Of a stretch of 64,000 nt of DNA, positions 21,347-35,581 are shown one piece after another (within the stretch, counting starts at the first letter, position 1; each line of letters opens with the position of its first letter). Below the pieces are notes generated by a model. That model saw only the letters and a program-made list of their open reading frames with translations. It had not been told where the DNA came from and searched no databases. Source of the stretch: an uncultured Pedobacter sp. (lineage in GTDB: Bacteria > Bacteroidota > Bacteroidia > Sphingobacteriales > Sphingobacteriaceae); NCBI GenBank assembly GCA_938008555.1, contig CALLKE010000093.1:4138-68137 (forward strand), read 5' to 3'. Position numbers and translations under genes: made by a program.

Positions 21347-21829
21347 TTTTGATTGACTTGGTTTTGATCGTATAATAAGTATTGGATTTATGAACTGTTA
21401 ATTAACTCGTTTTTCTAAAACGCAGCAAAACTGAAACACACGGCATAAACAGTCGGCTTGTAAATAATTCTAATTGAATAATATCATTTATAAATGTTTA
21501 AAAACGCATATTTAGTTCATAGCTTATTCATCAGCTCCCCCCCCACTTTCATCAACATGAGGGGAGCTTGACGATATCGCATAAACTAATCAGAAGAATG
21601 GAAAATTTTAACCCAATCATAAAGCATAATCTAAAATGCAGAGAAGCGCTTTATAAGAGAGGAGAATGTATTCTTCAATAATCAGGGGCTTTGGATTCAC
21701 TTGTTTTATAACATACCCATAAATAAACCCCAGGAGGAGGCTTCCCATGTAGAATATCTTGTTATTGCCACTACCCCCAATTGATTCAAAAAAATTGACT
21801 GAATATTAGCTATCTCCTTAGATATTATT

Positions 21830-22393
21830 TCAATTAACACGTTGAGACCCACCAGTACCATTTTGTGTACTTCCAGGAATATTCCGATCATATTGCAACC
21901 GCTGATTCTTATCCAGATATAGAAACCCAGTTCTACCAGTTTCTTCAACTTTTGCACCATTAACGTATCTCATCTTTTTTGAAGTAAATTGAGTCACGAC
22001 GAAATCACCTTCTTTATCAACCTCAACAAGTTTGTTATTATTAGGCTTAGTCTCAAATGTAACACGCCTATACTCATCCTCATAAACACCTACTGTTTTA
22101 TTAGTGCTTCCAATCTCTTTGCCGTCTCGGTACTTTCTCTTTGTTGTAGAAGAACTAGTAATTAAACTCTCATACGGCTTGTCTCTATTACTAGATCCAC
22201 TACCTGAACCTTGAGACGAAGAGTTAGAGTTACTAGATCCACTACCTTTACCTGGAGGCAAGGATTTAGATCTACCCGAAGTTGAAGCAACTGAAGCTGG
22301 TTGATCTGGAATAATGAGCGCTTCCTTTTGACAGGAAGTTCCTAACAGTGCAACAAGAGAAAGGCCACATGAAACTTTTAAGTAACGATGCAT
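21830..22393 (-). CDS. cassette lipoprotein family member A
   Basis: N-terminus MHRYLKVSCGLSLVALLGTSCQKEALIIPDQPASVASTSG is shared with five neighbours. The rest is an S/G/N-rich core, and the protein ends GGSQRVN. Confidence 0.75.
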   Translation of the reverse strand: MHRYLKVSCGLSLVALLGTSCQKEALIIPDQPASVASTSGRSKSLPPGKGSGSSNSNSSSQGSGSGSSNRDKPYESLITSSSTTKRKYRDGKEIGSTNKTVGVYEDEYRRVTFETKPNNNKLVEVDKEGDFVVTQFTSKKMRYVNGAKVEETGRTGFLYLDKNQRLQYDRNIPGSTQNGTGGSQRVN

Positions 22394-22448
22394 AATTTTG
22401 CGATTAGATTGATTGAAAAAATTAATTAATAAACCGCAATTATACTAG
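22394..22448 (-). promoter_or_regulatory. conserved promoter/5' UTR block of cassette A
   Basis: The minus strand reads CTAGTATAATTGC 43-55 nt upstream of the ATG (TATAAT; TAtaATTG against the Bacteroidota -7 box TAnnTTTG). A conserved leader TTATTAATTAAT...AATCAATCTAAT follows. The same block precedes D, E and F. Confidence 0.5.
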
Positions 22449-22635
22449 CAAAAAAATAAAAAACAATATAATAAGTAGACTAAATATGATATTTTCAATA
22501 AACACCTGTCTATCAGATTAAAAACCAATGAGTGTAATACCAGTATAGCTACTATACCTCTATAAAACTAGAATCATTGTCTACACATTTTTATCCTTGT
22601 TTTCTATTACTGAATAATCGTTCACACTAATCCCT

Positions 22636-33507: not shown

Positions 33508-33607
33508 ATTGTTAGCAAAATAATACTAAAGCTATTGAAACTTAAAATATGTTTAAAAACCATTTAAATTCTAAACAATATCACTTCTAAGGACGAGGAA
33601 ATCCATA

Positions 33608-35149
33608 CTAGTTTACTGTGCTTAAAACAATTGTTTTACGCTCTGGTGAGCCTAGCGTAATGGTTTGACTAACAATTGCAGCATCATCTGCACTTGCAAA
33701 TATTTTGAGGCTCGCATCGCACAGACTACGTTGTCTGTCTAAATAAATAGAAATTGTTTTTAACTCATTCGATAAATCAAGTGTACTCGGTGGATTAAGC
33801 AGATATGCTGCGCCAGCTCCTTCGTAACAAAGCCTGATAACTGTATTCCTTTCACTATTGCTGGAACATTTGATCATTTTCACCAAAACCGAGATATGCT
33901 CATATACATTTTTTTGTTTACCATGATACATAGCCTCCAGCTTAAGTTCATTCGATGCAGGCAATGAAATATTCGATGAAGCTATGTTTTGAAAATCGGA
34001 CGAACTAGCTGTCATCGTGAGGTCTTTAGCACATCGGACAGCCGATTTAAGAAAAACATCAAATTGATATTGACTCTGTCCGGCTGGTATCTTGACAGAT
34101 TGAGGTGAACCATCTAAATCCATCTGTGCATTATTACTATAGGTAAGCGTAATAGGCATTGAATAGAAAGGATTCACGTGACATTGTGGAATGCTTATAG
34201 TCACCGGAATGCGCTCTCCATTCGTTTTTTGATTACGTTCAAGCACAGCTGCACTCAAGGTGAGCCCATCTGCTGCTGGGATATTAAGCTCATGACATGA
34301 AGGCGTGTAACCACGTGCATGAGCAACTATTTGAAGATTTTTAGACTTAGTCGCATAAATCTTCTTCAATGGTATATTGATTTGATTGGATGCTAAGTCA
34401 CGCATATCGACCGATTGAGGTGCACCATCCAAGTCATCTTTTCCAGTTCCTGAGTAAAAAAGATCTAAACCAGATTTTGTCGTAGTGGATGCACGAACCG
34501 CTTCCATAGAAACCTTGTCGCTACAACCATTCGACATCCTATTGAGCTTCACACGCACATCCATAGGTTCGATAGTAAGTGTACCCATCTTACTAGGATT
34601 TCCCTCTTCTGATACACGTATCATTAACTTATACTTATTCAGCCCTTCTTTATAATAAGCATCCTTGAATTTTACCCCTATTCCACAATACGAATCTATA
34701 GGCCATTTCCTTCCGTTTAAAAGATATGGTTGCAGTATATTGATTATCATTCTTTTATCCCCTTCAATATATTTTCCAATATCCGAGCCATTAATTTTCC
34801 TAGATCCATCATTAATTTCATAATCAATCAACAGACTAACAACAAAACGATCGGGATACGAAGTATGATCAGAACTTGAAACATTCGTATGTATATAAAA
34901 AAAATACTTTTTAGGTCTTTCAGATGAAGGACAATGCTCCTTCTCATCAAACCGAGATAAATGATTAACTGATGACAGAAGCTCAATCGATTCTAAGACT
35001 ATATTATCACTAGCACTACTAGAAACAAATGGCTTTATACGCGAATAACTCCGTGATTTTACTGAACCACTAAATAAACCAACTAGTACCGTGATAAAAA
35101 AAATACTATACTTTTTAAAACAAAATCGAATAAGATAACCTTTGCCCAT
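33608..35149 (-). CDS. secreted repeat-domain protein, paralog 2 (513 aa)
   Basis: Collinear with paralog 1. The 3' ~190 nt are almost identical at DNA level, and the upstream ~50 bp are also shared (AAAGCTATTGAAA..TTAAAATAT.TTTA). Confidence 0.75.
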   Translation of the reverse strand: MGKGYLIRFCFKKYSIFFITVLVGLFSGSVKSRSYSRIKPFVSSSASDNIVLESIELLSSVNHLSRFDEKEHCPSSERPKKYFFYIHTNVSSSDHTSYPDRFVVSLLIDYEINDGSRKINGSDIGKYIEGDKRMIINILQPYLLNGRKWPIDSYCGIGVKFKDAYYKEGLNKYKLMIRVSEEGNPSKMGTLTIEPMDVRVKLNRMSNGCSDKVSMEAVRASTTTKSGLDLFYSGTGKDDLDGAPQSVDMRDLASNQINIPLKKIYATKSKNLQIVAHARGYTPSCHELNIPAADGLTLSAAVLERNQKTNGERIPVTISIPQCHVNPFYSMPITLTYSNNAQMDLDGSPQSVKIPAGQSQYQFDVFLKSAVRCAKDLTMTASSSDFQNIASSNISLPASNELKLEAMYHGKQKNVYEHISVLVKMIKCSSNSERNTVIRLCYEGAGAAYLLNPPSTLDLSNELKTISIYLDRQRSLCDASLKIFASADDAAIVSQTITLGSPERKTIVLSTVN

Positions 35150-35581
35150 ATTCTATATAAAATGGCAGCAAAGCTATTGAAATATTAAAATATATTTAGA
35201 GTTTATCTAAGATGAGAAACAAAGTAATATTGGAACCTATTTAAGCTCTACCTAAATATTATTCAGCTGATTAGACCCTCGAACTCCTTGGAGCTTAAAC
35301 TGATCGATATTTTTCAAAATAATAACCTACTGATTTTAAAAATAAAAACACCACCCAGCACCCAGTTAGGAAATATTCATTAATCATTAATTAAAAAAAC
35401 AGAAACAAAGCAAAACAAATAAAGCATCCACTCATCTATCAAATAATTAAAACAATTTTATTAACCAAAAAACATAAAAATTAACAATTAACTATTTTTA
35501 ACAAAAAAAGAGTCAGCAGGACAGATATATTTTTAGCATGTTTGCAAATAGTGTCAAACATTATTAACCAATAAGAACAAA

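Follow-up and report, generated by a model that had tools for sequence, protein, structure and literature searches.

The 64,000-nucleotide window analysed here (the whole stretch of contig CALLKE010000093.1 given above) comes from an uncultured Sphingobacteriaceae bacterium of soil or water type and carries, between positions 21830 and 35149, a locus of nine intact genes whose products may form a single surface structure. Six of them are lipoprotein genes, designated cassettes A to F, two encode paralogous repeat proteins of 511 and 513 aa (paralogs 1 and 2), and one encodes a giant protein of 1819 aa, with decayed gene copies in between (Table 1). With somewhat better than even confidence, this locus can be regarded as one conserved, lineage-restricted unit consisting of a surface fibre exported via a type IX secretion system (T9SS), tip-like accessory proteins and variable outer-membrane lipoproteins. 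The adjacency of the giant, a ~510-aa protein and one or more lipoproteins is conserved across distant relatives, and because of this adjacency the three families probably build one surface structure. The case for one functional unit is a good one. It had been put forward in the initial annotation, where the repeat protein was seen as secreted or anchored and the lipoproteins as accessory or variable, and is now supported both by the gene adjacency found elsewhere and by a natural gene fusion.

Relatives of the locus are found in uncultured members of the same family. A word search with the giant retrieves one homologous cluster (P0002, 70% identity) and a search with the 511-aa protein retrieves four, the cluster members being labelled Pedobacter sp. 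or Sphingobacteriaceae bacterium. Scanning the GTDB species representatives yields one genome, a metagenome-assembled genome labelled Pedobacter sp., and a scan of JGI metagenomes with the alignment of close relatives adds one more strain of the sister lineage only. In this sister lineage (contigs L001, L014, L015, and L016), where the giant is 70% identical to that of the window, genes for a 115-aa lipoprotein, a 521-aa protein, a 1925-aa giant, and two lipoproteins of 142 and 148 aa stand together, flanked by genes other than those of the window; the short contigs L002 and L003 repeat the two local arrangements. At a greater distance, L006 and L007 combine a 510-aa protein (32% identity to the 513-aa paralog over 350 aa, E 2e-47) with a giant of 2097 aa, which is 27% identical to that of the window, and with a tandem row of seven lipoproteins (185-235 aa) whose C-terminal halves are coiled-coil-like. 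The initial annotation had let its proposal depend on whether the three families co-occur outside this genome, and they were found adjacent to each other in three further lineages.

One of these lineages brings two of the families together in a single polypeptide. On L005 (395-5509, P0008), a 511-like protein is continued without interruption into the giant, giving an in-frame fusion of 1704 aa that is followed by one lipoprotein; the junction lies at about giant repeat 7, and the signal peptide and the first six repeats of the giant are lost. This fusion argues for the ~510-aa proteins sharing both compartment and assembly with the giant. Reduced versions of the locus can also be found. The family members P0013 (948 aa) and P0011 (1558 aa) occur without a ~510-aa partner, each with an adjacent upstream lipoprotein starting C-K-K-E or C-R-K-E, and P0013 (L010) is syntenic with the L006 cluster, with the same UbiA and NagB/PIG-L neighbours. 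Similarity between the leaders can be detected over the first 25-60 residues when lipoproteins of the window, L006 and L010 are compared (E 8e-4 to 7e-7). Altogether, a lipoprotein with this same leader adjoins a family member in each of the six lineages with informative flanks, across three genomic neighbourhoods and down to 27% identity of the giant; for P0010, all contigs end at the gene, which makes its upstream side uninformative. The genome of L006 carries two family members, P0009 with the full cluster and P0011 (L011) with a double core module, ~200 kb apart on the same 542-kb scaffold.

The giant protein displays, in this order, a Sec signal peptide (MKIFSKALLLVALCSIFLLDSAKA with K next, recognised by eye in the translation and not by a predictor), nine immunoglobulin (Ig)-like repeats, a core module of 370 aa, three beta modules of ~100 aa, and a C-terminal domain resembling a sorting domain. 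The last ~95 residues align over their full length throughout the family. Among 13 homologous C-termini, nine match PF18962 and 10 match TIGR04183 at E<=1, with a best value of 4.6e-6 and with all matches below or near the gathering score. A host T9SS is indicated indirectly by GldB (PF25594, E 5e-108) and by a CHU_C cargo, both encoded in the window, the core T9SS genes lying outside it. Because homologues match the T9SS models and the window also encodes GldB and this CHU_C cargo, a divergent sorting domain of type A is the most reasonable reading of the C-terminus of the giant, which carries PNC in place of PNP. With CHU_C/TIGR04131 the giant gives no match, and no PorP_SprF gene is found in or beside the locus. 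The label "T9SS-type" given in the initial annotation is supported only at the family level, by way of the homologues, and not for the giant's own C-terminus, which matches no T9SS model.

Regarding the repeats, a search with a single copy (giant aa 275-380) recovers the other copies of the giant and one copy in each paralog. A hidden Markov model (HMM) of the repeat, built from these, detects nine ~105-aa units between aa 63 and 1005 of the giant, and each paralog contains two to three; that the giant and the paralogs share this repeat had been claimed from the sequence alone. Both ~510-aa proteins consist of a head domain followed by these repeats, which in paralog 2 occupy aa 217-299, 308-412 (independent E-value 4e-36) and 417-510. 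The repeat was modelled by AlphaFold2 (AF2) from an alignment of 20 sequences as an eight-strand beta-sandwich, with a predicted local distance difference test score (pLDDT) of 82. Compared with the PDB by Foldseek, a check suggested in the initial annotation, the model resembles various Ig-like folds without a specific neighbour (best E 7e-4, template-modelling (TM) score 0.42-0.65); among these weak matches are Calx-beta domains, macroglobulin MG domains and a lipoprotein of a Bacteroides conjugative transposon. No family of Pfam, NCBIfam or the PDB is matched by the repeat, and it could not be placed in Calx-beta, Big or another named Ig-like repeat family. As modelled, it is a generic Ig-like module outside all curated families. 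Sequence and profile searches of the PDB with the giant and with the 511 family likewise give no match.

The six cassettes share a signal peptide, a lipobox, the first ~20 residues of the mature protein and little else. Over the first 42 residues they are 53% identical in pairwise comparison, vs 16% for the remainder, and at the DNA level a 158-nt block over the start codon is common to all six with 66-78% identity. The lipobox reads LGTSC, LGTAC, LGAAC or LAIAC in five cassettes and is an atypical LFTAC in cassette C; behind it, the sequence C-(Q/K)-K-E-x-x-I-x-P-x-Q-P-V-S-x-A-S-T-S-G is conserved. In their mature form the proteins are basic (isoelectric point 9.6-10.3), of low complexity and 67-81% polar or disorder-promoting in composition. 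Several of them terminate in (S/T)-Q-R-P-(N/K/Q), as do lipoproteins of the sister lineage. Anchoring through a C-terminal Lys, as in Braun's lipoprotein, was considered and dropped, such a Lys being present at the end of only two of the six cassettes. In-frame tandem repeats can be found in cassette D (23963-24050, 27 nt x3.3, 95% matches, encoding NASTRSNAS units) and in cassette A (22188-22270, 42 nt x2), and these are possible sites of size variation.

Upstream of the start-codon block, a further promoter-like block is common to cassettes A, D, E, and F, and is lacking in B and C. The TTTGCTAGTATAATTG block upstream of the cassettes can be considered a candidate promoter. It contains TTTG(C)TAGTATAATTG, which resembles the Bacteroidota -7 element TAnnTTTG. 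A search of the conserved 5' blocks against Rfam gives no known RNA at E<=0.1. On the downstream side, the hairpins H1, H2, and H3 are long palindromes placed right behind cassette stop codons or their remnants. All three of these hairpins, described in the initial annotation, fold strongly (z -7.3 to -9.8), but the "decayed hairpin" described with them behind cassette E does not fold significantly (-12.2 kcal/mol, z -1.4). As features of phase variation, only T6-T7 tracts are seen at the cassettes, and no inverted repeats flank their promoters.

This organisation raises the alternative that the cassettes are an independent family of fast-evolving variable lipoproteins, comparable to the Vlp proteins of Mycoplasma, which merely lie beside T9SS cargo genes and do not belong to one machine. 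That A, D, E, and F each have a promoter-like block of their own, and several cassettes a terminator of their own, would fit such independence, as would the range of copy number from 1 to 7 and the mature parts, which show no relationship from one lineage to another, the tail being coiled-coil-like in L006 and of low complexity in the window. On the other hand, all cassettes are co-oriented with the giant, and a lipoprotein with the same leader adjoins a family member in all six informative lineages and in three neighbourhoods; independent cassettes are judged unlikely.

A second line of evidence for the fibre with its lipoproteins comes from the way in which the locus evolves. In the window, turnover of the cassettes has left duplicates, decayed copies and remnants, a frameshift, and the loss of the promoter block in B and C. 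Cassette E has lost its original C-terminus by frameshift, the ancestral NDSQTPK-stop being now out of frame. The repeated duplication and decay claimed in the initial annotation is borne out by this frameshifted cassette and by the remnants, including the decayed cassette at H3, which was confirmed by reading the intergenic DNA, and a putative 24-nt piece left from a third 511-like paralog's 3' end, which that annotation had not mentioned. As for the giant, members of one cluster of >90% identity measure 1925, 1723, and 1411 aa, the last being possibly partial, and the repeats of the L001 giant are near-identical to each other; because of these varying lengths and near-identical repeats, the difference in the length of the giant between strains is put down to probable changes in repeat number.

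Exchange between the two paralogs is apparent from strain L003. While its cassettes F and E are 100 and 99.5% identical to those of the window at the nucleotide level and the sequences upstream of E and F are identical, its 511-aa gene (L003 37-1572) reaches only 92.4%. At 86 of the 116 differing sites, this gene carries the allele of the window's 513-aa paralog, and over gene nt ~900-1320 it is 98-100% identical to the 513 gene. Such a pattern identifies, at the level of the alignment, a gene-conversion tract of ~420 nt between the paralogs, across the Ig-repeat region. Among four sister-lineage strains, the two downstream lipoproteins (e.g., L014 15920-16872) show ratios of nonsynonymous to synonymous polymorphism (pN/pS) of 1.6-7, vs ~0.2 for the last 3.6 kb of the giant and 0-0.3 for the flanking outer membrane protein gene, values that derive from few substitutions in metagenome consensus sequences. 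The differences that these small lipoproteins have gathered between near-identical strains are nearly all nonsynonymous. Between L001 and L015, the lipoprotein genes differ at 10 of 876 nt and the flanks at 0 of 5298 nt (Fisher p 3e-9). These figures are indicative of positive selection on the lipoproteins, and no more than indicative.

Taken in this sense, the giant would be exported by Sec and would cross the outer membrane through the T9SS by means of its C-terminal domain, at which end it would be held at, or released from, the surface. Its Ig-like repeats may form a stalk of strain-variable length, of which the ~510-aa proteins could be exchangeable distal extensions or tips. The lipoproteins can be hypothesized to be partners anchored in the outer membrane or a coat, the conserved leader serving for targeting or docking and the variable tails facing a selective agent. 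The unit would then diversify by duplication and decay of cassettes, by changes in repeat number, by gene conversion between paralogs and by positive selection on the lipoproteins, a pattern as would be expected where phages, predators, or competitors act on a surface structure. Bacteroidota shape their cell surface mainly by means of T9SS cargos, yet the majority of giant cargos, and almost every gene beside them, have not been characterised. The locus offers a conserved three-part association, in which a cargo is joined by lipoprotein arrays sharing a leader and by an accessory repeat protein capable of fusion with the cargo, and in which signs of diversifying evolution can be measured; should the parts interact, a type-A T9SS cargo would here be seen to have lipoprotein partners dedicated to it. 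Its value is limited by the rarity of the family, which has so far been found only in uncultured Sphingobacteriaceae.

Several observations weigh against the reading as a T9SS-exported fibre with its own lipoproteins. The giant's own C-terminus gives no match to PF18962 or TIGR04183 at E<=1, and the ~510-aa proteins are devoid of a sorting domain, which leaves their route to the surface unexplained. The fusion is known from one short-read (Logan) contig, the pN/pS ratios suffer from the small number of substitutions given above, and no experimentally characterised homologue was found for any component. Regarding the lipoproteins, the surface-export rule C-X-K-(D/E)2, covering positions +2 to +5, has been defined in Capnocytophaga (PMC5080379). 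In the cassettes (CQKEA/T, CKKEG), position +3 is K and position +4 is E, the only acidic residue, so that they do not comply with this rule; for Sphingobacteriaceae a different rule may apply. That the lipoproteins are exposed at the surface is plausible, and is not supported by C-X-K-(D/E)2.

The core module is the part by which the family is defined. An exhaustive HMMER search with giant aa 620-1819 against 1.84 billion cluster representatives retrieves only 15 proteins, and in all 15 the module is recovered once or twice by jackhmmer; as far as these searches reach, it defines a very rare family. No match to the core module and its homologues is found in Pfam (13 modules, E<=10) or among PDB sequences and profiles. 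Across the 13 modules, invariance or near-invariance is confined to Pro, Gly, Trp, Tyr, Phe, Leu, Ile, and two Cys, whereas Asp, Glu, His, Ser, Lys, and Arg are never invariant. An enzymatic function was therefore considered and set aside as unlikely, there being no invariant residue of catalytic type. The AF2 model (pLDDT 62, predicted TM score 0.62) shows a beta-rich body with strands of 14-16 residues, a helical subdomain, and a Ser/Thr-rich loop of 77 residues modelled with low confidence. Within the loop lies an amphipathic beta-hairpin, which in the window reads SLTVQAGLSLRA-GNN-FIATVEKNLSIAIS and has a Gly-rich turn. At the position of this hairpin, the beta-amphipathic moment is the highest in five of seven single-module members and among the top three in all seven; the signal is weaker in double-module members. 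The beta modules that follow the core give no match to PDB sequences. Because only one of their 19 copies matches Pfam fn3 (6.4e-5), they can be called FN3-like only tentatively.

Such features might hint at another function for the giant, namely that of a beta-pore-forming toxin of the aerolysin/ETX-MTX2 type delivered by the T9SS, the core of which would oligomerise and insert its hairpin into the membrane of prey, competitors or eukaryotes, while the lipoproteins would protect the outer membrane of the producer or aid release of the toxin. Long predicted strands around a disordered Ser/Thr-rich loop would suit a pore-former, and so would the lack of invariant catalytic-type residues and, as a pattern in the sequence of single-module members, the conserved amphipathic hairpin with its Gly-rich turn. 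Immunity repertoires typically take the form of small genes arrayed downstream of a toxin. In addition, about 20 of the 50 best weak matches of the core module in the PDB are toxins of the aerolysin family (proaerolysin, Cry78Aa, Cry51Aa2, CPE, Dln1, Epx4 and Tpp80Aa1). None of these Foldseek matches is significant, however, with TM <= 0.19: the best E is 0.015, for proaerolysin at TM 0.09 with the model of pLDDT 62, and the probability does not exceed 0.44, a value reached with Cry78Aa (TM 0.18-0.30). Nor does any member match Pfam or PDB sequences, even at E <= 10 when searched singly. The helical subdomain is atypical of the aerolysin family, the hairpin signal is weak in double-module members, and the lipoproteins, disordered and of low complexity, are unlike specific immunity proteins; in the sister lineage, it is the lipoproteins that vary and not the core module. 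Furthermore, the core lies within an 1819-aa stalked T9SS cargo, unlike the known toxins, and the literature searched yielded no T9SS-secreted aerolysin-like toxin, no T9SS pore-former and no similar locus. The toxin is hence regarded as improbable and a pore-forming role of the core module as a weak lead. Slightly more doubtful still is the wider proposal that the core is a new membrane-inserting beta-pore-forming domain on a T9SS-delivered Ig stalk, with lipoproteins under positive selection that protect the producer or arm the weapon. If true, it would amount to a new device for contact-dependent killing or predation in Bacteroidota. Should the parts of the locus interact, the core module would also add a new domain family to bacterial surface or attack proteins.

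In its presumed working the locus is akin to other giant T9SS surface proteins, and the logic of its cassettes recalls the variable lipoproteins of Mycoplasma. By sequence, it is demonstrably a member of no named family, with the exception of the type-A T9SS cargos at the family level. Like TfsA and TfsB of Tannerella forsythia and the C-terminal domain (CTD) proteins of P. gingivalis, the giant combines a Sec signal peptide, a long Ig-like array and, at the family level, a C-terminus of ~90 aa homologous to Por_Secre_tail/TIGR04183. Its repeat, core and beta modules, however, match no described family, and no known cargo has been described as conserved together with lipoprotein arrays and a ~510-aa repeat protein as partners. 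SprB and RemA of Flavobacterium johnsoniae are likewise T9SS-exported surface proteins of giant size and repetitive build, whose genes have accessory genes (sprC, sprD, sprF) beside them; in contrast to the SprB type, with its CHU_C type-B domain and PorP/SprF partner, the giant is type-A-like, has no PorP/SprF neighbour and shows no sequence similarity.

With respect to the lipoproteins, the Vlp and Vsa systems of Mycoplasma are alike in that the genes stand in tandem and conserve their promoter region and the signal peptide of the prolipoprotein, while the mature regions are divergent, of low complexity, fast-evolving and partly built of in-frame tandem repeats. There is no homology to them, though (VlpC_Nterm only at E 0.32), and the cassettes have neither a long homopolymer tract nor an invertible promoter, their upstream regions being identical in two strains; their host is a Gram-negative member of the Bacteroidota and they are linked to a T9SS cargo gene. 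In Porphyromonas, the Mfa-type (type V) fimbrial operons encode pilins made as lipoprotein precursors together with the T9SS-dependent tip protein Mfa5. An operon-like cluster of lipoprotein-precursor subunits with a large protein bearing a T9SS sorting domain is thus common to both, but the FimA/Mfa-fold pilins measure 300-500 aa, as opposed to low-complexity cassettes of 121-189 aa, and the giant has no von Willebrand factor A (vWA) domain. The locus was also considered as a type V pilus, and this was rejected on size, composition, and the lack of a Pfam FimA/Mfa match.

Table 1. Coordinates of the features of the locus, in gene order on the minus strand (positions in the window)
Feature	Coordinates	Strand	Basis or remarks
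Paralog 2 (513 aa): three Ig-like repeats behind a signal peptide and an N-terminal head domain (~aa 35-205)	33608..35149	-	Open reading frame (ORF), repeat HMM
Paralog 1 (511 aa)	31972..33507	-	64% identity with paralog 2
Cassette F: 121-aa lipoprotein (31403-31768) and putative promoter/5' untranslated region (UTR) block (31769-31895)	31403..31895	-	
Putative 3'-end remnant from a third 511-like paralog	31210..31233	-	92% identity over 24 nt to 31974-31997, E 7e-4; weak
Decayed cassette 3' end (..GLPQNSK-stop), then terminator-like hairpin H3 (30990-31035)	30990..31065	-	-36.1 kcal/mol, z -9.8
Cassette E: 127 aa (30415-30798), putative promoter block (30799-30927) and decayed hairpin (~30345-30414)	30345..30927	-	
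Giant protein, 1819 aa from MKIFSK	24625..30084	-	ORF; Sec signal peptide aa 1-24
Nine ~105-aa Ig-like repeats (giant aa 63-1005)	27070..29898	-	Repeat HMM, independent E-value 1e-6 to 6e-43
Family-defining core module (giant aa 1005-1375)	25960..27072	-	13-module alignment, jackhmmer, AF2
Conserved amphipathic beta-hairpin in core-module loop (giant aa ~1166-1196: SLTVQAGLSLRAGNNFIATVEKNLSIAIS)	26497..26589	-	Beta-amphipathic moment
Three ~100-aa beta modules (giant aa ~1376-1695) with conserved W, Y, C	25000..25959	-	jackhmmer, repeated copies across the family
Putative divergent type-A T9SS C-terminal sorting domain (giant aa ~1725-1819)	24628..24912	-	Family alignment, homologue matches
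Cassette D: 189 aa (23903-24472) and putative promoter block (24473-24544)	23903..24544	-	
Hairpin H2, palindromic, terminator-like, directly past the stop of cassette D	23864..23901	-	-28.1 kcal/mol, z -7.8
Cassette C: 147 aa, without upstream promoter block; begins ~40 nt past H2	23379..23822	-	
Cassette B: 164 aa, upstream block truncated	22677..23171	-	
Hairpin H1	22638..22675	-	-32.7 kcal/mol, z -7.3; 89% identical to H2
Cassette A: 187 aa (21830-22393) and putative promoter/5' UTR block (22394-22497)	21830..22497	-	

An ORF map of 19-38 kb gives the genes in the order 513-aa paralog, 511-aa paralog, cassettes F and E, giant, and cassettes D, C, B, and A, all on the minus strand; the plus-strand ORFs of the interval are short and contained in the giant gene. 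Several claims of the initial annotation hold here without change, namely the nine minus-strand genes and their order, the neighbours gldB and an efflux operon, and the view that the region does not have the looks of a classical mobile island. Horizontal acquisition as an island, or descent from a phage or other mobile element now degraded, in which the repeat proteins would be, for example, tail-fibre-like, might account for the different genomic contexts of the locus in different lineages, whose flanking genes vary, for the decayed gene copies and for the slightly lower GC content at 30-32 kb. Outside that interval, however, the GC content is like that of the surroundings. No integrase, transposase or boundary repeat was found at the locus in the ORF listing and by repeat search, no tRNA lies near it (the only one of the window is at 706-790), and no relatives were found in IMG/VR or in phage and plasmid collections, nor any match of the core module in BFVD by Foldseek. 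Scans of ten proteins against Pfam, NCBIfam, PHROG and PADLOC gave no family above noise and only weak sub-threshold matches, the best among the locus proteins being DUF5006 on the 513-aa paralog (E 0.0036). A mobile origin is thereby largely refuted and is held to be very improbable.

On one side, the locus is flanked by nadE and gldB and, on the other, by an operon of the OEP/HlyD/2xAcrB type. Between gldB and the locus, a further lipoprotein of 176 aa (20816-21346, minus strand) with the lipobox TIGC-RKD lies outside the cassette family; no family could be assigned to it, its sole match being a weak one to PADLOC PD-T4-6 (E 0.0072). At the end of the window, an ORF of >4953 aa (49138-63999, minus strand) runs off the sequence and carries a CHU_C type IX signal (type-B CTD) at its C-terminus (E 9e-19). 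It encodes an SprB-like giant adhesin without the repeat of the locus (repeat HMM E about 1). In the efflux operon, two full-length AcrB-type RND (resistance-nodulation-division) pump genes (38254-41526 and 41802-45053, plus strand) stand in tandem behind a single OEP/HlyD pair.

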